A stretch of DNA of 62,511 nucleotides, counting the filler, from Basidiobolus ranarum (Eukaryota): NCBI GenBank assembly GCA_040143965.1. It is 40 parts of 40 records of this genome, joined end to end, with 100 filler letters (N's around TTAATTAATTAA, not from the genome) between each part and the next. Parts side by side here need not be neighbours in the genome. Positions count along the whole stretch, not along the records: positions 37,629 to 39,091 come from JASJQH010011981.1; 39 more parts are not named here. One strand, written 5' to 3'. Under the pieces are notes generated by a model, which saw only the letters and a program-made list of their open reading frames with translations, had not been told where the DNA came from and made no database searches. Below are positions 9,616-62,005 of the stretch, one piece after another (positions within the stretch are counted from its first letter, which is position 1; each line of letters starts with the position of its first letter). The position numbers and the translations under genes were made by a program.

Positions 9616-10893
9616 ATCTTAATTTGGATTCCAAGATAGAACCTCAGTTCACCAAGATCAGTCATTTTGAATTTGGCAGATAAGCTGGATTTGGTGTCCT
9701 CCAAAGTCTTCAAGTCATTGGTTGCTTTAATAAGATCATCTACATATAAGGCTAATAAAACTGGGTTTGTCTTATCTGGCCTGAAGTAGGTACTATAGGC
9801 AGCATTACTCTTTTGGAATTTGAGTGTTTGCAAATAAGCATCTATCTTGCTATTCCAAGCTCTTGGAGATTGTTTTAAGCCATAGGGTGTTTTCCAGAGT
9901 CTGCAAACTTTCAGGGTTTTCTGGGTCCACAAATCCATCTGGCTAGTCCATATAAATTTCCTCAGCAAGTTCAACATTCAAAAAGGCAGTTTTAACATCA
10001 ATTTGATGTATAATAAACTGATATTTAGCTGAAATTGCTAAAATCAATCTAATTGAATTGAACTTTGCTACAGGAGCAAAAGTTTCTGTTTAATCTATTC
10101 CTGGCATTTGGGAATAGCCTTTGGCTACTAGTCTAGCATTGTACCTTTCTATATTGTCATCAGAGTTGTATTTAACTTTAAACACCCATTGGTAGCCAAT
10201 TGATTTTCTATCATCAGGTAAGTTGGTTAAAATCCATGTTTAATTATCAAAACAAAGCCTGGTATTCATCAGCCATTGCAGATCTCCAAAATTTCATGTG
10301 AGCGCCATTCAGAGCCTCTTTGACAGTCTGGGGTTCATGTATTTGAGCTGTGCAGGCATAGGCCCAATTTTGGGACTCATTGATATAGTAATCAGGGCTA
10401 TTTCTGATCCAATATGATCTCCTGGTTTTGGATAAAGGTATTACAACTCCTGGCCTTGTATTGGGCACTTCAGTAGGGAAAATTTTGGTTGCAGGTTCCA
10501 CAGGAATGCTATTTTCTTCACTTTTTATTTGAATCAATTTCAATGATTGGATCAGGAGAAAATTGATTTTTGTCATCATCTGAGGTCATTCTGGGTGAAA
10601 ATGTTTCATTTTCATTAAACAAAACAATCCTGGACTTGATTAAATGGAAGTTTTGGTATCATAGAGTCTGTAGGCCTTAGTTTGAGTACAATAACCCAGA
10701 AAAATGCATTTCTTACTTTTTGGATCAAAGATAGACCAATTTTTGGTCATAATTTTAACATGGGCAATGCATGCAAAGATCCTCAAATGTTTTACATCAG
10801 ATTTAACTCCAAACCAAGCTTGATATGGTGTTGAGTTAGAAAGGCCTCTAGTGTAACTCCTATTCTTCATATATACAGCTATAGCAACAGATT
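9616..10893 (-). mobile_element. Ty1/copia pol fragment (integrase C-term/SH3, RT)
   Basis: DPKSKKCIFLGYC, EPQTVKEAL..W.SAMADE, YGLKQSPRAW, LYVDDL, MTDLGEL. Confidence 0.95.
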
Positions 10894-14131: not shown

Positions 14132-14792
14132 CTTTGCTGTCACTTTTGATGATGGACCAATAGAATACACTGGAAAACTTCTTGACGCTTTGAAAGCCAA
14201 GAAGGTTAAAGTGACATTCTTCGTGGTTGGTGAAAGTAAAGAATTTCTTTATATGTCTGGTTGAATTTGATTCATTATCTCAACGTCCTCTTTGTGTCTT
14301 TTAGCTCTTCTTGAAGAACAAAACCGTAAATACCTCAAGCGTGCCTATGATGAAGGTCATCACATCGCTTCCCACACCTATACCCACATCAGTCTTTCCA
14401 AATCTTCTGATGATGTTATTCGTTCCGAGATGCAAAAGACTTCGGATGCTATTTTTAAGGTCATTGGTAAGCGTCCCCAATACATGCGTCCTCCTTATGG
14501 TGAATACAATGCCAAGTCACTTGCTATCATGAAGGATATGGGCTACAAAGTCATCTACTGGGATGTTGACACTCTTGACTGGCAGCACAAGAACTCTAAG
14601 CAGACTCTCAAAGTCTACAAGGATGTTCTTGCCAAGGCCAATGCTAAGAATGATCGCTTCATTTCCCTTCAACATGATATTCAATCGAGTACCATTGATG
14701 TTGCTTCACAAATCTTGACTTCAGTCATTAAGGCTGGATTCAAGATAACCACAGTTCCTGACTGCTTGGGAGATACTGGATTGTACTTCTAA
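14132..14792 (+). CDS. CE4/NodB polysaccharide (chitin) deacetylase, 5'-truncated; intron 14236-14304
   Basis: TFDDGP, HTYTH, RPPYG, DTLDW and LQHD motifs all intact; GT-AG intron restores frame. Confidence 0.95.
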
Positions 14793-17957: not shown

Positions 17958-18727
17958 AATGGTGACTCTATGAATTAGTGATTTAATGTCTTCTCCTGGC
18001 TTCATCTTTAAGTTAAAGAATGTTCTTCTTAGAAACATCTTTTTGATAGCAGAGCATGTTTGGTAGGTATCTTCCAAGGCTTTCCATACATTCTTGGCAG
18101 TTTTAGCTCTTGAACACTGAATTAGCAATTTGTCTTGAACATTAAGACAAATTGAGTTAAATGCACTTTGATCTTTTTTAACCTGGATTGAATCTTTGGT
18201 TTCAGATAGTTTTGCATTGTTTTCTTCTCCTACAACAGTGTCCCAAAGTCCTTTTTCTTTCAGCAGCATTTTTATTTTAATTTTCCAAACTTGAGAATTG
18301 GTTTGATTCAATATTTCAGAAGAGAGAGAAGTTCCATAAATTTGAGAAGTAGACATTACAGAGAGTGCAAGCTTGGGGTTCATAATCTGTAAAGTATTTG
18401 GGAGTCTGTTAGAAGTGGTTTGGAGAATTAGAGGAATTGGTGGCTTTCACTTATTGATTTACTGAGTTGACATTTATAGTTTTGTCAAGATGTAAATAAT
18501 GTAATGTGTAGAATGTGTTAAGAAAGGTCCCAGGAAGGTGTGTGCAAAGTTTGGGGCTTCTAGCACAAGTTTGAAAAATCTATATATCTGAGAACTTCCA
18601 AGTTGGTTGAAATATTCAATGTAATTTCCAATTGAGAATAATGGATAATATCTTAGTGAATTATAAGATAACTAGGTACTAAGCTATATATGACTATATA
18701 GGTGCTTGGGCAAAACTAATTTCAACA
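17958..18727 (-). mobile_element. Copia 5' LTR family A (18388-18727), PBS and gag start
   Basis: LTR then GATTATGAACCCCA (decayed GGTTATGAGCCCCA); gag N..VWKIKIKMLLKEKGLWD..AKTAKNVWKALE..FFNLKM. Confidence 0.92.
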
Positions 18728-20304: not shown

Positions 20305-20609
20305 NNNNNNNNNNNNNNNNNNNNNNNNNNNNNNNNNNNNNNNNNNNNTTAATTAATTAANNNNNNNNNNNNNNNNNNNNNNNNNNNNNNNNNNNNNNNN
20401 NNNNTTCGGGTCAGTTTAAGCCTTCAAGAGCTGCTTCTGTGAATCACTTACTTTCTCAATAGATTGGTACTCAGTGCCAACTTGTTCCTCTTTAGCATGG
20501 GTAGGGATATAATAAAGACCTCGCCTATCTGAAAAGTGAGCCTTTGAGCAGTAGTTTCTGTTGTGAATATGTCATGAATTAAGACATCCTACTAATGTAA
20601 GTCTGTACA

Positions 20610-20693
20610 GCTGATTTGGCCGAGTGGTCTAAGGCGGGTGACTTAAGATCCCCTCCCGGAAACGGGGCGCGAGTTCGAACCTCGCAGTCAGCA
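20610..20693 (+). tRNA. tRNA-Leu(UAA)
   Basis: Acceptor GCTGATT/AGTCAGC, A-box TGGCCGAGTGG, anticodon loop CT-TAA-GA, long variable arm, GTTCGAAC; one mismatch in anticodon stem. Confidence 0.93.
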
Positions 20694-21594
20694 TCTTTTG
20701 TTCTAATTAGCCTCAACTCTCAAATTCAATTATTTCATATCTTCCTTATTTTGGATTCCCACGCCATTGGTTTGTAGGGATTTATCATTTCATTCACCAA
20801 TACCAGATTCATGCCAGAAATTCCTTTTCGCTCATTTTTCACCACACAATGATCCGATCAGTTATCCCAACCTGCTGCAATACTTACAAGCGCCAATCTT
20901 TGGGTGATTTGAAATGTCAACGTAGCATGGCCCTTAGGATGGCATCAGTCGTTTCATTAGATGCCCGACTGAATAACTCAGATAGTGGTGAAGTACACGC
21001 CACTTTGTTCTATCATGGCTCATTTTAATCCAATTCAAAGTCAATCATGGCAAAGCTCGATGGTTAAATGTGTAATGTCATCCATACTCTACCTACTGAT
21101 TGCGTTCCTCTGTTCCCTAAGCATTTTAACCAATACTCATTCGTGTGTGATTTCTGACTAGGATTAGGGTCGGTGAATTTCCACCTTCTGATGATAGTTT
21201 TTCCAAGCGGGAAAAAAGATGGGAAATTTGGGTTGTAAAATTCGCCACCCCTTCCTCTGAGTAGTCATGAGATGGATTAATGATAGTCATGATTCTTTCT
21301 GTTACTATGAGTCGAACCATGTACCTTACAATATACCATTAATTATTACCAGGTGAGATCCATCAACCTACTAACTAGGCCAAAGGCACATCGCAATAGT
21401 CAATGTATCATCTCTGAGCTTATGAATAGTTATGAGGCAAAGAGAACTGCGTGAAAATATAGACACCCATTCTATGGTAGAACAAGTAGATTCATTCTCA
21501 CCTTCTATTAGCATTGACTAGGAAGAAAAGAGAAATGAATCCCATGCCTGCCAATCAAAGAGTCTTACAGAAAGTCCATAAAATTAGCCATCTC

Positions 21595-21667
21595 TGGAGA
21601 TTCCGGGTATCGATCCCGGTGCCTATCGCATGCGAAGCGATCGCTCTACCACTTGAGCTAAACCCCC
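21595..21667 (-). tRNA. tRNA-Ala(CGC)
   Basis: GGGGGTT/AATCTCC acceptor with G3:U70, ATCGC-TT CGC AT-GCGAT anticodon arm, CCGGG-ATCGATA-CCCGG T arm. Confidence 0.95.
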
Positions 21668-21972
21668 ATATAGTAACGAGGACATATTTATCCAAGCTCC
21701 TATTGTAATCATTCTTTATTTTTTGGGGAGAGAGAGAGAAAGGATCGTGAGGAGATATGGTATCATTGCATTTCCAGCCATCAAGACGTACTGATTCCCT
21801 TAACCATCATCCACCAACTCAATACATGCAAAATATCAAGACTGAACCAAAATGACTCGATGTACCATACCANNNNNNNNNNNNNNNNNNNNNNNNNNNN
21901 NNNNNNNNNNNNNNNNTTAATTAATTAANNNNNNNNNNNNNNNNNNNNNNNNNNNNNNNNNNNNNNNNNNNN

Positions 21973-26673: not shown

Positions 26674-28139
26674 TGCTACAGCTGTATATCTGAAGAATAG
26701 GAGTTTACTAGAAGTCTGTCTAAATCTACACCATATCTAGCTTGATCTGGAGTTATACTTGATGTAAAATATTTGAAGATCTTTGGATGCATTGCTTATG
26801 TCAAAATTATGACCAAAATTTGGTCTAACCTTCTGAAGTGCTTAATACAATGCCAGAAGTTGTAGTACCTTTATCCCAAACTAGGAGATCAAATAGGATC
26901 AGCAATAGCTCTGATTAGTATATCAAGGAGTCCCAAAATTGGACCTATGCCTACACAGCCCAAAGAGGCCCCAAATGGCCCTCACACAATATTTTGGAGA
27001 TCTGCAATGGCTAATAAATTCCAGCCTTTGACTGTTAATGAAACCTGGATTTAAACTAAATTACCAGATGATAAAAAATTAATTGGCTGCTGATGGGTAT
27101 TTGAAGTGAGATACAACTCTGACAGCAATATGGAAAGGTACAAGGCTAGACTAGTGGCCAAAGGCTATTACCAAACTCCAGGAATTGGTTATACAGAAAC
27201 TTTTGCTTCTCTAGCAAGGTTTAATTTAACTAAATTGATTTTAACAATTTCAGCTAAATATTGGTGTATTATACATCCAATGGATTTTAAAACTCCCTTT
27301 TTGAATGGTGAGCTTGCTGAGAAGATCTGTATGGACCAGCTGGATGGATTTGTGGACCCAGAAAATCTCAAAAAAGTTTGTAGACTCCAGAAAACACTCT
27401 ATGGCTTAAAATAATCTACAAAAGCTTCTGGAAACACTCAAATTCCAAAAGAGTAATGCTGAGTATGTTATCTACTTCAGGTCAGATAAGACTAACCCAG
27501 CTTTGTTAGCCTTATGTGTGGATGACCTTATTATAGCAACCAAGGACTAGAATGTTGAAATTAGCTTTACCTAAACACCTACATAGTCATATATAGCTTA
27601 GTACTTATTTATCTCATACTTCACTAAGATATAACCCATTTTTCTTAATCAGAATTTACTTGTAATATTTTTACCAACTTAGAAGTTCTCAGATATATAC
27701 CATTTTTCAAACTAGTGTTAGAAGCACCAAACTTTGCACCCATGTTTCTGGGACTTTCCTTAACAAATTCTACTTGTTAGTTTGTTTGCATTTTGACAAA
27801 ATTATAAATGTCACCTTTCAACTCAATAAATCAATAAGTGAATACCGCCAATTTCTCTAATTCTCCAAACCACTTCCAACAGGCTCCCTAATACTTTAAC
27901 ATTTTAAGTTTGAGCCAGAAGCTCATAACTTTGTACACATGTCTCAAGAACCTTCTTTAAAGTGCTGTACATGCTAGTTTGCTTACATCCTAACAAAATT
28001 ATAAATGTTAACTTTGTTGAAGTATTTGGGAGCCAGTTGGAAGTGGTTTGGAGAATTAGAGGAATTGGTGGTTTTCACTTATTGATTTATTGAGTAGAAA
28101 GTTGACATTTATAGTTTTGTCAATATGTAAACAAACTAA
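26674..28139 (+). mobile_element. Degenerate copia pol interrupted by LTR A (27553-27901), plus an inverted LTR A part (28015-28139)
   Basis: ERYKARLVAKGYYQ, QKTLYGLK; TGTTGAAATTAG...TACTTTAACA. Confidence 0.9.
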
Positions 28140-34500: not shown

Positions 34501-35667
34501 ATATCCATTTCAGGTACTTCATAGTTCACTGATTCCAGTTGTTGGGCAAGTTTCTTGACACCATTTACATATGTCATAATATCTGAATCCTCAGACATAC
34601 AAGAGTTTAAGAATTTTCTTTGTAGCATCATCAAGTGAGCAAGCCCTTTTTGCTCATGATGTTCCACTAGGATTTCCCATGCATTCTTGGCACAGTTAGC
34701 ATCTCTGCCTAGCATAAGCTGTTGTGATCCCAGTCTTAGACAAATTTCCCTAAATGCCAATCTATCTTTTTCTTTAAAGGTTGCCCTGGCTTCTTTGCTT
34801 CAGTGTCAGAATCTATACTTTCTTCTTCATCTGGTTGAACTACTTCCCAGGCATGTTTCCCTTCAGGCACAAGTTGCATCTTGAATTTCCATTCATGGAA
34901 ATCTTCCCCATTAAATGCTGGAATATTGGTAATCTTCTTTTAGGAAGAAGACTCTAATTCACTTGCTGCTATCATGTTGGAGGATCTTGACATAATAGGG
35001 GTAGACTTTGGGTAGTAGAAGCAACTTATGATAATGTGTTTTAGTTAGTTTATTCTTAAGAGTATATGGTGACTTATACAGTAGAAAAGTAAATCAATTG
35101 TTTGAGATATTCAGGAGTTAGTGTAATAAGCTATAGTAGATAAGTGGGGGTAATAAGACATACTTGTTATTGGGAAAATATTGGCTGTTTGGAGGAACTT
35201 TAGAAAAGTGGAGTTGTCAATAGCTTTGTGAGATAATTGTTTATTGTCCAGAAATAAAGTATTTATACTTTTTGGTGGAAATACAGAAAACTAACACTGG
35301 GGTTGTGTACAGAACATCTGTGGGAGTAAAATGAGCTATCTTTGGGGCAATTTGGATGAGTTTGAAATTTCCAATGTGGAATTGCTAATTCTCACATTAT
35401 TCACATATATATATACTATATGTTCTGATTTTTAGCTAAGTGATATTTGACTAAGTAATGTTAAATAACTGCTATATGAAATAGTTAGGTGTATAAAGAT
35501 AGAGATAACAAATATGATAAAGACAATAAACTTCAACACTTGTTATATAGATATAGAGATATTCCTATTTAGAATATAGGGGTTATAGATACATTGCTTT
35601 CTGTTTCTGATATATGTATCATAACTAAAGTTAACTATGATGTTGCATAAAGATCAATCAGCCAACA
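34501..35667 (-). mobile_element. Copia 5' LTR family C (34975-35667), PBS-like TGATAGCAGC and gag start
   Basis: LTR ends ..GATCCTCCAACA; gag FNGEDF.EWKFKM..., AKNAWEIL..LQRKFLNSCM. Confidence 0.88.
35168..35538 (-). repeat. Solo LTR family B nested in LTR C, 5-bp TSD CTTGT
   Basis: CTTGT at 35163-35167 and 35539-35543; the uninterrupted site is seen at 9481-9500. Confidence 0.95.
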
Positions 35668-37146: not shown

Positions 37147-37528
37147 TGTTTAAATTAGCATTGCCTAAGTGCCTGTATAGTCATATATAGCTTAATACTT
37201 AGTTATCTTATAATTCACCAAGATATTATCAATTATTCTAAATTGGGATTTACTTAGAATATTTTTACCAACTTAGAAGTTCTCAGATATATATAGATTT
37301 TTCAAATTTGTGCTAGAAGCCCCAAACTCTGCACACATGTTCCTGGGACCTTTCTTAACACATTCTACACATTAGTTTGCTTACATCTTGACAAAACTAT
37401 AAATGTCAACTTTCTATTCAATAAATCAATAAGTGAAAACCACCAATTCCTCTAATTCTCCAAACCACTTCCAACAGGCTCCCAAATACTTTAACAGGTT
37501 ATGAGCCCCAAGCTTGCACTCTCTGTAA
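37147..37528 (+). mobile_element. Copia 5' LTR A (37147-37496) with PBS GGTTATGAGCCCCA (37497-37510), inserted in LTR B
   Basis: TGTT...AACA termini, 350 bp; PBS directly adjacent. Confidence 0.92.
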
Positions 37529-37952
37529 NNNNNNNNNNNNNNNNNNNNNNNNNNNNNNNNNNNNNNNNNNNNTTAATTAATTAANNNNNNNNNNNNNNNN
37601 NNNNNNNNNNNNNNNNNNNNNNNNNNNNAATTTGCTGAAGAAGAAAAATTTTCAATCAAAACCATCCAGGATCAAGAAAAACAACCAAAAATTGATGAAA
37701 ATTCTTCTTTTTCTCACCAGATCCTGATCAGTGAGAAAACAATAAAACTTCTTCACCTGCTGTCTGCTCAACTAAGCCTGAGGTGGTTGCATTGCCTAAA
37801 TTGGTACCAGAAGTTGTAGTGCCAATTTCCCATCTTAGGCAATCTAATTGAATGAGATCTCAACCTGATTACTACTCTCACACTTGCCAAAAGAAAACTA
37901 GTGCCAATTTAGCCTCTTCTGATGAGCCCAAATCAGTACAGGAGGCTATGGA

Positions 37953-38233
37953 TGTTGAAAGTCTGGTGACTTGTGGTACATGCAGTAATTCCAAAAGAGG
38001 AAAATATGGAGCATGGTGACTGCATCTGAACACAAAGGCTAAGGCAAATCAGTTGCTTGTATAGCTGAAATGCCAAAGTATCATACATTAACAGACTAGG
38101 TTAAGGTCCCCTAGCAACATAGGCATAGCACACAAGGACTGGTAGCTCAGTGGTTAGAGCACCTGCTAAAGTGAAGGAGATGCCAGGTTCAAATCCTGGC
38201 CAGACCAATATTTCTCCCTAAATAATTTCAACA
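37953..38233 (+). mobile_element. 281-bp solo LTR containing a tRNA-like sequence (Helenus-type TRIM-like)
   Basis: TGTTGAAA...TTTCAACA inverted ends; TSD ATGGA at 37948-37952 and 38234-38238; removing it restores the host RT frame. Confidence 0.9.
38136..38207 (+). ncRNA. tRNA-like (pseudo-tRNA) with Pol III A and B boxes inside the LTR
   Basis: GGACTGG/CCAGACC acceptor (one mismatch), TAGCTCAGTGG A-box, CCAGG-TTCAAAT-CCTGG T arm; anticodon arm degenerate. Confidence 0.85.
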
Positions 38234-39191
38234 ATGGAGAGTCCAAACACAAAGTTTTGGAGTGCTGCAATGGCAGAGGAGTATCAGTCATTCGTAGATA
38301 ACCAAACTTGGACTCTGGTTAGGTTACCTGATGACCATAAATCAATTGGATGCAAATGGGTTTTTCAAGTTAAACAGCAAGTTGATGGATATGCAGAAAG
38401 ATATAAAGCCAGACTTGTGGCTAGAGGATACTCTCAAAAGGAAGGATTGGACTACATTGAAACATATGCTCCTGTAGGAAAGTTTAATTCCATAAGAACT
38501 GTACTAGCAGTAGCAGCAAAGCACAGCTTGAAAATCCACCAAATGGATGTTAAAACTGCTTTTTTGAATGGGGACTTAGAAGAGGATATATTTGTGGATG
38601 CCCCAGATGGTTTTGTGAATCCTGAGCACCCCGAGGATGTGTGCAAGCTGCAAAAGCCACTTTATGGACTTAAACAATCATCCAGTGCCTGGTATACTAA
38701 GATAGAAACATGCTTGGAATAACTTGATTTCCAAAAAAGTACCAAGGATTTTGGGATCTACTTTAAGGCAGATACAAGCAGTAAGGTGATACTTGCCTTT
38801 TATGTGGGTGATCTGATTATAGCTACCAATAATGATGAAGCTCTCAGGAACACCAAAAGAGATTTATCAGTCCAATTTAGGATGGCCAATTTAGGTAAAC
38901 TTACATATTTTTTAGGCCTGCAGATCCATACAGATTTATTGAGCAAACCTATTACTCTGAATCTATCTAAATACATCTCAGACATTATCAGATGTTCCAG
39001 AATAGAGAATTGTAAGCCAGTAGCAACTCCCATGGATCCTGGTGTGAAACTAGTCAAAAGTCCCATGAAAAATGATGAAACTTGGCCAAATNNNNNNNNN
39101 NNNNNNNNNNNNNNNNNNNNNNNNNNNNNNNNNNNTTAATTAATTAANNNNNNNNNNNNNNNNNNNNNNNNNNNNNNNNNNNNNNNNNNNN

Positions 39192-53455: not shown

Positions 53456-54060
53456 TTGTCAGCGTATGGGGTTAATCCTAGTCTGCAATTGCTAGGTTCA
53501 CAAATCCCTTAACTGCAACTAGTAATTAACCTCAATCGAAATTGTTGCTTTTATGTTGTGATTCAATATTAATAAACTTAAGCTTAATAAATGATCAAGA
53601 ATGATAGAAACAGATTTTGTAAGGGATCTTGAAATAATTATAAAGAAGTTGAATAAATTCCGTGTATGCCAATCAAAAGAATTAATGGAAACATATAAAT
53701 AGTTTTGTTCTGCATCTTCTATTCAACTGGACGCATATATTTGATGGCCATACTACCGCAAACTATTTTTGAATGTTTAGAATATTTTGATGTTACCTAT
53801 GTGAATTATCGGCTGATCGATGCAAGGAACACTTCAAGACATGACTCCGTGCAATACATCAAACCTGTGTTAGAGTAACGTTCTCAAAGAAGATCAATAT
53901 TGAATTTTCGTAACCTGTCACTCAACATGATGATATATTAGTACCAAGTTACGCCAAGAACTCAGTAGAAATAGTTACTAAAAAAGAAATACTAGGATTT
54001 GGTATATAAGTGAACACAGGAATCTATTAATATGACATCTTGGTTTTATATCGATTAATC

Positions 54061-54713
54061 ATGGTTGCCATTAAGCTTCTGACCTCTATCTCTTTCTTGG
54101 CTACCGTTTCGATGGCTTGGGTTTGGCCTTTACCTGCGAAGATGGATGTTGGTCATAACATCATTCGCTTGAGCAGAAACGAACTCGATATCTCCATCAA
54201 AACTCCAGCTGGCGCTGATATCCTTGAAAGAGCTGTCCACCGCTACAAGAAGTTGATCTTCACCAAGGGTGAGTTCAGCTCCCTCCTTAACACAGTTGAG
54301 AAGACTGTGTTCCCCATTCCTACTACTTCTGTCCCCGTTCATCAGCTCGCTCCCAAGGGTAAGTACCCTACACTGACTGGACTCAGTATTCAGGTCAGTG
54401 GCCACAACACCAAACTCAATCTTGATACCGATGAGTCGTACACTATCGATGTTCCTGCACGTGGTGGCAAGGCTACCATTAAGGCCAAGAGTGTGTACGG
54501 AGCTCTCCGCGGACTCGAGTCATTCTCCCAATTGGTCAAGTGGACTGCTGAGGCCAATCAGTACCGCATTCCATTCGCTCCAGTCTCGATCTCAGACAAA
54601 CCAGTCTTCGTCCATCGTGGTGTGATGATTGATTCATCCCGCAACTTCCTCAAGATCGAAGATATCAAGCGTACTCTCGATGCTATGTCTTACAACAAGC
54701 TCAATGTTCTTCA
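54061..54713 (+). CDS. GH20 beta-N-acetylhexosaminidase, N-terminal fragment (secreted)
   Basis: Signal peptide, VWPLP, TDESYTI, YGALRGLESFSQL, ISDKP.F.HRGVMIDSSRNF..LDAMSYNKLNVL. Confidence 0.96.
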
Positions 54714-54813
54714 NNNNNNNNNNNNNNNNNNNNNNNNNNNNNNNNNNNNNNNNNNNNTTAATTAATTAANNNNNNNNNNNNNNNNNNNNNNNNNNNNNNN
54801 NNNNNNNNNNNNN

Positions 54814-56273: not shown

Positions 56274-56373
56274 NNNNNNNNNNNNNNNNNNNNNNNNNNN
56301 NNNNNNNNNNNNNNNNNTTAATTAATTAANNNNNNNNNNNNNNNNNNNNNNNNNNNNNNNNNNNNNNNNNNNN

Positions 56374-57833
56374 GTGTTTCAAATAACCGGTTGTCACATT
56401 TGACTGCCTGGTGGATAGCATCAGTCAAGGTCACTGGGTCAGCCATAGTGAGTAAAAGATCCTTAATATTTTCTTGGAGTCCATATTGGAATTGGTTGAT
56501 CAGGGCAGATTCTCCCCAATTGAGATCACAGGCAAGAAGGCAAAATTCTGCAGCATAAGTTGATGCAGGTTTTGACCCTTGTTTAAGTGCACAGAGCTTG
56601 GTGGCTGAAGTTCTTTCTTTATCTGCATTTCCAAATGTGGCTTCCAGTTCAGCAAGAAAGGCAAGGAAGTTTGAAAGAAGTGGAGATTGACTTTCCATTA
56701 AAGGAGCAAACCAAGACAGAGCTGTTCCTGATAAGAGTGTTCCCACTAAGCCTACTTTTGTTTGGTCAGAGGGGTAGCAATGGGGATGTAACTGGATGAT
56801 AAGCTTTACTTGGTTAATAAAACCACAATAGTTTTGGCAAGTGCCATCAAACTTATTTGGTAGGGAGATTTTGGGTTCAGGAGTTGGAATTGCAGTATAG
56901 TTGGGTGGAGCTGGATTCTGTACTTGAGCAATGGAAGTACAAAGTTCTTGATTTTCTTGCTGAAGCTGAGTCAGGGCTTGCATAACATCTTCCATTGTGG
57001 GGGCTGGTGTAGACATAATACTTACTATGTTGGGAGGGGAAGTTTTAAAACCACAAGTTTCTCTAGGAATGATAATCACAATGCAATGTCCAACTTTCTG
57101 TTGAAGAAATGATTGGCGCCTTGACAAAAGAATATGCTGGTATCAACGTCCTTTGATCTTGATCAAGTACTAAAGCTTCTTTGATCAAAAACAACTGTAA
57201 ACTCAACCAGTAGTGTCTTGACAAGGATGCACTTAGAGCAATTATCCAAAGGTGGAAGGTACCTTTGCCTTAGCAGGGAAGCTTGGGAAAGATAGGGAAT
57301 AAGAGGGAAGCCGACCTTGGGGGGTTTCAAGGTTGGAGAGCAGGGATGGAGAGAAGTCTACAGGCAAGTATAAGTAGTCTGATCAAACTGTCACAATAAG
57401 GAACTGGACAAGGACTGGGAACAACAACAAGAGGCTAGAAGGCAGGAGAGTACTTGGGTGTAGACCACAAGACAAGACAAGACTGGACAAGGAAGATACT
57501 TTGGCAAGAATCCTTATTGTTAACAGGTGTTGATCAGACTGAGGTCTGATCAAGGAATACACGGGGCTTATATAGATATTGCATGGCAAAACATAATATA
57601 CTTAATAGGGAATATACTGTGGCAAGTTCAAGAGTTGGGGTGTTGGGGACTACAAGGACCAATACAAAGTGGGATGATGTAAGAACAATGTAAGGATGAT
57701 CGGGTGGCCTTTGATGGAAGGACTTGGCGGAAATACACTATGTGTGGGATGACATGATTGGTTAGGTTTCATGGAATGTTCCAAAGAACATGCCTTCCAT
57801 ATAAGGTAATCTGGATGAACTGACACCAGATTG
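56374..57833 (-). mobile_element. Chromovirus 5' LTR (57389-57833), leader and gag (ATG 57016)
   Basis: EPKISLP.KFDG, LLSGTALSWF, LKQG...STYAAEF..L.W.ESALI.QF..GL; LTR ends TGTGACA and overlaps the LTR copies at 11110-11214 and 49931-50026. Confidence 0.95.
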
Positions 57834-61052: not shown

Positions 61053-62005
61053 TCTTTGGTTGAAACCTGATTTGCTTGTTCTGACTTCTCATTTTAGTTG
61101 TAATTTCTTGATTTGCAATTGTTTAACTGGTGTCCTGGTTTGTTACAACCCTAGCATAAGCCTGCTTTCCTTCTTTTGTAACCTTTGTACTTGCCAAAGC
61201 TATGTTTTCCAGCTCCAAGAAGAGCCACTTCCTCAGATTCTTTTTCCAAATTCTTAATTCTGAGATGTTAATCCACTAGCCTGGCCACCAGAACCTCCAA
61301 AGACAACTTGTCAGATCTTGCTTCCCAAGCTGTGACTAAGTTTGAGTACTGTTATGGTAGACTACTCAGAAGAGTCACAACAACATCTTCTTCTTATAAA
61401 GTCACACCAATATTTTCCAGTTGTTTTGCCAAAGATCTCACATTTGCAATATGAGTAACCATGTTTTCAGACTTTTCCATCTTTATATGGAAGAATTTTG
61501 GTCTGAGGAAGAGTCTATTAGCAAGACTCTTTGCGTCATAACACTCTTTCAATATAGTTCAAGCTTGATTGGAAGTCCTTGCATATTGAGTATTCACAAG
61601 TTGTGAATCCTTCAAAATTTGACAAATGACATCAAAGGCCTTCTTGTGTCTTTTCTTGTAAGCTTCCAATAAAGAAGGGTCAGATGGTTCCTTTTCATCT
61701 CCAGAGAATACATCCTAAAGCTCCCTGTTTTCCAGCATGATTTGCATCTTGAACTTCCAGAAATTGTAATTTTCTGTATCAAGCTTTTCCACACTTGAGT
61801 TAATAAAAGTGGTAGTAGTGGTTTCTGTCATGCTGTAAAGGTTGGAACATGGGGATCATAACCTATTGGGAAAATATGGGCTGTTAGGAGGAACTTTAGG
61901 AAAGTGGAGCTGTGAATAGCTTTGTGAGATGATTATTTATTGTCCAGTAATAAAGCATTTATATATTTTGATGAAAGTATGGAAAACCAACACTAAGTTT
62001 ATGTT
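61053..62005 (-). mobile_element. Copia gag, PBS GGTTATGATCCCC (61851-61863) and 5' LTR B end (from 61864)
   Basis: NFWKFKMQIMLE..L; EDVVVTLLSSLP; LTR reads ..TTTTCCCAATA|GGTTATG. Confidence 0.9.

Follow-up and report, generated by a model that had tools for sequence, protein, structure and literature searches.

Helenus elements are small non-autonomous LTR retrotransposons (TRIMs) that carry tRNA-derived sequence in their LTRs, and they form part of a proposed group, TRIMp3 (Kojima 2024, Biology 13:119, PMC10886601). A whole Helenus element measures 311-1263 bp and consists of two LTRs and a short non-coding interior with a primer-binding site (PBS) as well as a PPT, the LTRs being 111-274 bp long in the portion of the published tables available to us and up to 323 bp in wasps (PMC10886601). 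Conservation in the tRNA-derived part centers on box A (TRGCY...YGG) and box B (GGTTC) (PMC10886601, section 3.5). Fungal Helenus elements produce target-site duplications (TSDs) of 5 bp and have been assigned copia elements as helpers; they are often left only as solo LTRs, and solo LTRs with a 5-bp TSD are described as common (PMC10886601). Among fungal Helenus and the copia elements presumed to help them, the GGTTATGAGCCC primer type predominates (PMC10886601, section 3.6), and in the part of Data S1 at hand most internal regions of fungal Helenus begin with this word (PMC10886601). Insertion of a SINE2 into the LTR of a TRIM has been proposed as the origin of Helenus, and Pol III transcription of these elements is, by the paper's own statement, unvalidated (PMC10886601).

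The fungal hosts reported to date are Pucciniales and Agaricales (Table 1 of that work), with Amylostereum mentioned in the text, and all of them belong to Basidiomycota (PMC10886601). The underlying screen took Repbase LTRs as its seeds and went beyond them only into relatives of the seed genomes (PMC10886601), so that early-diverging fungi were not systematically covered and the true range of the Helenus type is probably underestimated. The same work notes that 'not a few' Repbase LTRs hold tRNA-like pieces, Helenus being those that fit the length and structure of a TRIM (PMC10886601); possession of a tRNA-like part is therefore not enough to qualify an element as a TRIM. The presence of Helenus also has practical consequences for genome annotation, since in rust genomes these elements give rise to hundreds of false tRNA calls (PMC10886601).

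A related arrangement is known from plants, where the TRIM Cassandra carries in its LTR a 5S RNA gene with Pol III promoter and terminator (PMC7215508; PMC10886601). As described in the parts of these two papers that we consulted, Cassandra is a validated precedent for Pol III promoters and terminators inside TRIM LTRs. In this work we analyze a 281-bp insertion in a copia pol frame of a Basidiobolus-like fungus, and we compare its ends, its tRNA-like part and its surroundings with those of the systems outlined above.

Materials and methods

The DNA under analysis, hereafter the window, is a stretch of 62,511 nucleotides, fillers included. It contains 3432 N in evenly spaced runs (pairs of 44 N about every 1565 bases), which cut several open reading frames (ORFs), among them an exon of glycoside hydrolase family GH20 at its 3′ end, and leave the 281-bp element untouched. 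The whole window was scanned for segments of 100-1000 bp with a TG start, perfect 8-bp terminal inverted repeats (TIRs) and a perfect 5-bp flanking repeat, and the scan was repeated on 30 block-shuffled windows as a control. Nucleotide similarity within the window was searched with blastn (word size 7, E up to 10), protein domains were assigned with Pfam, and tRNA-like sequences were identified with ARAGORN and Rfam. A 27-nt word spanning T arm, acceptor and trailer of the element was matched exactly against collections of assembled contigs, both as it stands and with an N placed at the acceptor A-A mismatch, which was suspected to be private to this copy.

Results

Copia and gypsy remains, nested in one another, crowd the window. 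A Ty3/gypsy-type gag remnant (Pfam Retrotrans_gag, Ty3_capsid and DUF4939) lies at 56321-57142 on the minus strand, so that both LTR superfamilies are present. Two host exons on the plus strand sit among these transposon remains: a polysaccharide (chitin-type) deacetylase domain exon at 14271-14789 (Pfam 6.9e-23) and an exon encoding the N-terminal part of a GH20 beta-hexosaminidase at 54031-54762, assigned by Pfam and by protein identity. Over positions 54061-54711 the latter has 75-80% identity to three Basidiobolus meristosporus proteins, 76% to one of B. ranarum and 58-60% to two further B. meristosporus proteins; among other genera the best matches reach about 40-55%, the upper part of this range over only a portion of the exon. 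A protein atlas gave the family of this exon and no useful taxon. Judged by these protein similarities, the host is a Basidiobolus-like early-diverging fungus (Zoopagomycota). The low GC content and the prevalence of Pucciniales among fungal Helenus hosts had suggested a rust, a candidate that these identities reject. Rfam reports three tRNA matches in the window. Two of them, which ARAGORN also identifies, are ordinary genes in unique DNA, namely a Leu-TAA gene followed by a T4 run (20610-20693, plus strand) and an Ala-CGC gene (21595-21667, minus strand). Both lie in a unique, less AT-rich island at 20405-21872, and neither sits in an LTR-like frame.

The element that carries the third match occupies positions 37953-38233 on the plus strand and reads TGTTGAAA...TTTCAACA, as established by direct reading, blastn and the structure scan. 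Its 8-bp termini, TGTTGAAA and TTTCAACA, are exact reverse complements, with TG at the start and CA at the end, and it is flanked by two copies of the 5-bp duplication ATGGA, at 37948-37952 on the left and 38234-38238 on the right. LTR-type termini with a short inverted repeat and a 5-bp TSD, as found in fungal and plant families of Helenus, are thus both present. No other segment of the window combines a TG start with a perfect 8-bp TIR and a perfect 5-bp duplication, and in the control two of the 30 shuffled windows gave one match each (mean 0.07). The GC content of the element is 42%, against about 34% for the window. This is a real solo LTR, correctly described in the initial annotation, whose boundaries and perfect ATGGA duplication are borne out both by direct reading and by the sole match of the scan.

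The insertion interrupts a copia pol frame. On its 5′ side, positions 37852-37952 (plus strand) encode the integrase-RT linker of the host copia, with 39% identity over 33 aa to a paralog at 10408-10310 (E 9.5e-5), and the left flank, in frame over 37852-37950, ends in ...SSDEPKSVQEAM. On its 3′ side the host copia RT extends over 38234-39136 (plus strand), as indicated by Pfam and by the paralog match; from 38234 the sequence reads MESPNTKFWSAAMAEEYQ... (MESPNTKFWSAAMAEEYQSF...), leading into Pfam RVT_2, which is recovered with E-values of 1.7e-49 and 3.9e-19 in two RT ORFs parted by a single in-frame stop at 38720-38722. The flanking ATG codons are 286 bp apart, that is, 281 + 5, so that removal of the insert together with one copy of the duplication restores a single frame. 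The paralogous copia on the minus strand (10132-10408) has an uninterrupted pol frame at the homologous site and provides an 'empty site' at the protein level: the match to the left peptide stops at 10310 and that to the right peptide begins at 10312 (E 9.5e-5 and 1.1e-12, respectively), with a common boundary codon and a junction that reads ...HEPQTVKEAL/NGAHMKFWRSAMADEYQA. Since the two matches meet at 10310/10312, the site is contiguous in the paralog. The insertion into the integrase-RT linker is real and precise, and the 286-bp spacing and the contiguous paralog together uphold the earlier statement that excision restores the copia RT frame.

The copia copy that hosts the insertion is itself reduced. 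A copia LTR at 37147-37496 and its PBS sit only about 130 bp upstream of the integrase-RT linker, the intervening stretch being largely N, and with the 5′ LTR and PBS so near the linker, gag, protease and integrase must be absent from this copy. The copy (37147-37952) therefore looks like an internally deleted, non-autonomous copia derivative, and no matching 3′ LTR was located downstream of it in the window. A search for homologues of the host RT returned 4044 proteins at E ≤ 1e-10 among 4604 candidates, the best of them mostly metagenome or plant copia; they carried no taxonomic signal and gave no indication of the origin of the helper.

ARAGORN and Rfam agree on a 72-nt tRNA-like sequence at 38136-38207 on the plus strand. 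It occupies nucleotides 184-255 of the 281, in sense orientation, and ends 26 nt before the 3′ end of the LTR. The Rfam tRNA score is 49.4 bits against a gathering score of 29, with an E-value of 5.9e-9 in 2.5 kb and 1.5e-7 over the whole window. Its A box, TAGCTCAGTGG (38143-38153, plus strand), fits the Helenus pattern TRGCY..YGG given by Kojima, and its B box, GGTTCAAATCC (38186-38196, plus strand), contains GGTTC, the part conserved in Helenus (PMC10886601). A tRNA-derived sequence with both boxes conserved is accordingly found within the LTR, by ARAGORN and by Rfam, as it is in Helenus. In the ARAGORN model the acceptor stem has six of seven pairs and one A-A mismatch, the D arm four pairs, the T arm five, and the anticodon arm four pairs, one of them G.A, with a loop of 8 nt; no isotype is assigned. 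The cloverleaf, with its two boxes and its D and T arms, thus agrees with the earlier description, with the correction that the anticodon arm, which had been called broken, is weakened and not absent. The minimum-energy fold of the 72 nt is likewise a cloverleaf, of a stability that does not exceed that of shuffled sequences (z = -0.81; 41 of 200 shuffles fold at least as well).

At Rfam E-values up to 1 the tRNA family is the only gene family matched by the element. There is no match to 5S rRNA at this threshold, and the 5S-derived sequence that defines the LTRs of Cassandra and Ajax is thus missing from this one. Reading of the sequence around 38136-38207 showed neither direct repeats at its flanks nor a tail rich in A or made of simple repeats, of the kind that a recent secondary insertion might leave. 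The good state of both boxes and of three arms out of four, with a score of 49.4 bits, suggests constraint on the promoter; a recent capture of the tRNA-like part would give the same well-kept boxes and arms.

Downstream of the tRNA-like part lies a trailer of 26 nt (38208-38233, plus strand), delimited by a listing of T runs and by local alignment, with a T3 run at 38211-38213 and ending in ...TTTCAACA. Upstream of it, the 183 bp at 37953-38135 (plus strand) would constitute the U3, if its border is placed at the start of the tRNA-like part; this segment has no similarity elsewhere in the window by blastn, where nothing longer than 19 nt is matched. The plus strand of the element contains no TTTT, and the first one past its end is found at about 38254, within the host RT sequence. 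We considered depletion of TTTT as a mark of selection for Pol III read-through and discarded it as not significant, the same being true of 353 of 2371 windows of 281 bp in this DNA (15%) and of 49% of shuffles. The solo LTR may still be firing Pol III.

No second copy of the element was found in the window by blastn (word size 7, E up to 10), where comparison with the remaining sequence yielded the self-match and 30 chance matches of 11-19 nt. The 27-nt word gave no exact match in metagenome contigs, and neither did its version with an N at the mismatch in metagenome, viral and prokaryote-genome contigs; because both scans demand exact identity and these collections hold little fungal DNA, they are weak evidence on copy number.

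The LTR upstream of the insertion (37147-37496, plus strand) is a mutated copy of the 350-bp LTR of a resident copia family, identified by repeat comparison and alignment and reading TGTTTAAATTAGC...CTTTAACA; other copies, starting with TGTTGAAATTAG, are located at 27553 on the plus strand and at 18727 and 23802 on the minus strand. Directly after it, at 37497-37508 (plus strand), position and word match identify the PBS GGTTATGAGCCC, which is complementary to an anticodon loop with anticodon CAT. The window holds four matches to this PBS word at up to two mismatches, against 2.73 expected by chance, so that the word gains its meaning only from where it lies, right behind the LTR end at 37496. 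When 3′ ends are aligned, the last 20 nt of the element and the last 18 nt of the copia LTR share 17 identities with two 1-nt gaps, a local alignment score of 12 that was reached by seven of 1000 shuffles. At the 5′ end only the 8-nt TGTTGAAA is common to both, with a score reached by 660 of 1000 shuffles. Because the ends of the element are palindromic, the opposite orientation gives some end similarity too (59/1000 and 204/1000 shuffles). Given this similarity and the weak 5′ match, it is chiefly the Helenus analogy and the 3′-end match that support the orientation assigned to the element. The link to resident copia elements drawn in the initial annotation gains some support from the 3′-terminal 20-nt match (7/1000) and the Helenus-type PBS; mobilization itself is what we infer from them.

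The four 350-bp copia LTRs thus resemble the element in their TGTTGAAA start and in their 3′ end, whereas their interiors show no similarity to it by blastn and, unlike the element, they have no tRNA-like part, as follows from the three Rfam tRNA matches in the window, two of which are the ordinary genes described above. One of these copies is part of a nested insertion at 27500-27560, where the TGTTGAAATTAG-family LTR starts at 27553 right after a copia RT frame ending ...LCVDDLIIATKD, with RT homology upstream at 26980-27150. A second LTR family has copies at 35168, 41186 and 61864 on the minus strand, and GGTTATGATCCC, which adjoins it at 61852-61863 (minus strand), is one mismatch away from the anticodon-loop-type PBS; priming of this type thus seems to be common to several copia families of the window.

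Discussion

What is directly observed at this locus is an LTR-type-ended insertion with a 5-bp duplication, of which one LTR is left, carrying in sense orientation a tRNA-like sequence whose A and B boxes are intact. Our preferred explanation, to which we assign a probability of about 0.6, is that the element is the solo LTR of a Helenus-type small non-autonomous LTR retrotransposon. The labels 'mini-retrotransposon' and 'Pol III-driven' given to it earlier are ones that we infer. It is plausible that we are dealing with a new family, or a new host lineage, within a known kind; what is new is the host lineage and, probably, the family, the kind itself having been published in 2024.

The main rival to this reading is an ordinary copia-type LTR, belonging to an autonomous or large non-autonomous family transcribed by Pol II, in which an old tRNA- or SINE-derived segment persists as a passenger or enhancer. 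The ends, the TSD and the insertion itself speak for it exactly as they do for a Helenus-type element, many Repbase LTRs hold tRNA-like pieces without being TRIMs (PMC10886601), the 281 bp are near the size of the 350-bp resident copia LTR, and the window is packed with copia and gypsy remains. We nevertheless consider it a clearly less probable alternative, of perhaps one chance in four, because both promoter boxes and three arms out of four are in good condition (49.4 bits), which suggests constraint, a point tempered by the fact that a recent capture would look alike; because the tRNA-like part, by its place and orientation, and the short trailer reproduce the Helenus layout, as compared by eye with the available part of the published consensus sequences; and because blastn finds in the window no similar LTR joined to coding copia remains.

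Two other explanations would detach the tRNA-like part from the LTR, or the LTR from retrotransposition. A SINE or tRNA retrocopy could have entered an ordinary solo LTR after its integration, so that the tRNA-like part would be private to this copy, a scenario that the initial annotation itself raised; the SINE2-into-TRIM-LTR origin proposed by Kojima for Helenus implies that such events occur (PMC10886601). The segment at 38136-38207 lacks, however, both a flanking duplication and an A-rich or simple-repeat tail, and the 20 nt past the T run of the trailer continue as a copia-like LTR end, so that a secondary insert would need to have landed exactly at the Helenus tRNA position, which makes this course of events quite unlikely. 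Less probable still, and in our estimate very improbable, is that the structure is no LTR at all, and is instead a MITE with 8-bp terminal inverted repeats or a product of chance. Perfect inverted-repeat ends do not by themselves separate an LTR from a TIR element, and two of 30 shuffled windows contained one TIR-plus-TSD structure each. Against this, and going by the TSD lengths usual for each superfamily, TG...CA ends combined with a duplication of 5 bp are the signature of copia integrase and are unusual for DNA transposons; the resident copia LTRs have the same TGTTGAAA start and a very similar end; and the precise in-frame interruption with a contiguous paralog marks a real insertion.

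Under the Helenus-type reading, the original insertion would have comprised two LTRs and a short interior with PBS and PPT, and recombination between the LTRs would have left the single LTR seen today. Integrase and reverse transcriptase would have been supplied in trans by the resident copia family, a candidate helper because its LTRs begin with the same TGTTGAAA and end very similarly, it makes duplications of 5 bp, and its primer site is of the half-tRNA type (CAT anticodon loop). Transcription of an intact element by Pol III would start at about 38136, leaving a U3 of about 183 nt; R would be made up of the tRNA-like part, which opens it, up to the following T run, and U5 of the last 20 nt or so, so that the trailer at 38208-38233 would hold the end of R and U5. 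In this scheme the tRNA-like part would be no functional tRNA; its role would be that of an internal Pol III promoter. A T run straight after the promoter would raise the difficulty known from retroviral poly(A) signals: transcription would need to ignore it in the 5′ LTR yet stop at it in the 3′ LTR. In fungi, Pol III terminates weakly at short T runs, which would allow read-through of the 5′ LTR.

If this reading is right, the element represents a Helenus-type family outside Basidiomycota, the only fungal phylum with reports of Helenus, and with confirmation, TRIMs with a tRNA promoter (Helenus/TRIMp3) would be known from an early-diverging lineage of fungi as well. Among the titles and abstract openings that we surveyed in the literature there is no report of such elements in Basidiobolus or other early-diverging fungi. 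A bolder version, which we regard as improbable, holds that Basidiobolus-like fungi have a Helenus-type family of their own, parasitic on copia elements primed by that half of an initiator tRNA which holds the anticodon loop, with a tRNA-like part and trailer homologous to those of the rust Helenus-4/16 type. Were it true, such homology would make the pairing of parasite and helper far older than the approximately 130 million years proposed for Pucciniales, or would point to horizontal movement of the pairing between distant fungal phyla. In practical terms, a confirmed Helenus-type element would call for the same caution with tRNA gene predictions in Basidiobolus-type genomes as in rusts, and a copia family with matching ends and primer type adjoining the element would make this a handy genome for studying which helper traits TRIMs imitate.

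Comparison with known systems places the element at different distances from each of them. With Cassandra it shares, on the Helenus-type reading, the principle of a small-RNA Pol III promoter within a TRIM LTR, whereas Cassandra belongs to the plant lineage and carries a 5S sequence in place of a tRNA-like part. With tRNA-derived SINEs (SINE2) it has in common a tRNA-derived promoter with A and B boxes in a short non-coding repeat. SINE2 elements have their tRNA head at the 5′ end, followed by a tail, and variable-length TSDs generated by the LINE machinery; the element, by contrast, has TG...CA inverted repeats at its ends, a TSD of 5 bp and a tRNA-like part that begins only at nucleotide 184 of 281, so that neither a 5′ tRNA head with a 3′ tail nor the lack of terminal inverted repeats proper to SINE2 is seen.

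Helenus differs from the element in host, Pucciniales, Agaricales and Amylostereum standing against a Basidiobolus-like fungus, and in state, only a solo LTR in one copy, with no interior, being found in the window. The LTR of 281 bp compares with 111-274 bp in the tables as far as they were available and with up to 323 bp in wasps, and the trailer of 26 nt with 15 to about 65 nt in those Helenus trailers of the accessible data that were measured. By eye, and for the part of Data S1 consulted, the tRNA-like part is of a 72-nt type without the long extra arm of the most similar Puccinia families, and the run that follows it is T3 as against T4 or longer in all 26 Puccinia consensus LTRs. As exact words in the Data S1 file, the T arm of the element occurs 0 times and its D arm 16 times; the absence of the former indicates that the element is distinct from the published consensus sequences. 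Helenus-4_PGr, Helenus-4_PSt, Helenus-16_CroRib and Helenus-5_UTr have letters in common with the element in acceptor, T arm and, to some extent, trailer, and the last 11 nt of the element are the last 11 nt of Helenus-2_PTrit, again by eye within the portion of the data at hand.

The likeness extends to the overall plan. Helenus LTRs, like the element, start with TGTTG... and end with ...CA, are flanked by a 5-bp TSD and hold a sense tRNA-like part with A and B boxes near their 3′ end, and the copia helpers with an initiator-type anticodon-loop PBS that accompany them have a counterpart in a copia family of the window. In part 1 of Data S1, inspected by eye, all 26 complete consensus LTRs begin with TGT..., hold a sense tRNA-like part in their 3′ portion, continue with a short trailer that has a T run and end in CA, and further LTRs from the other parts that we consulted have the same layout. 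The comparison with Helenus made in the initial annotation is therefore apt, the layout of the element being, by eye and for the consensus sequences seen, that of the published fungal Helenus LTRs.
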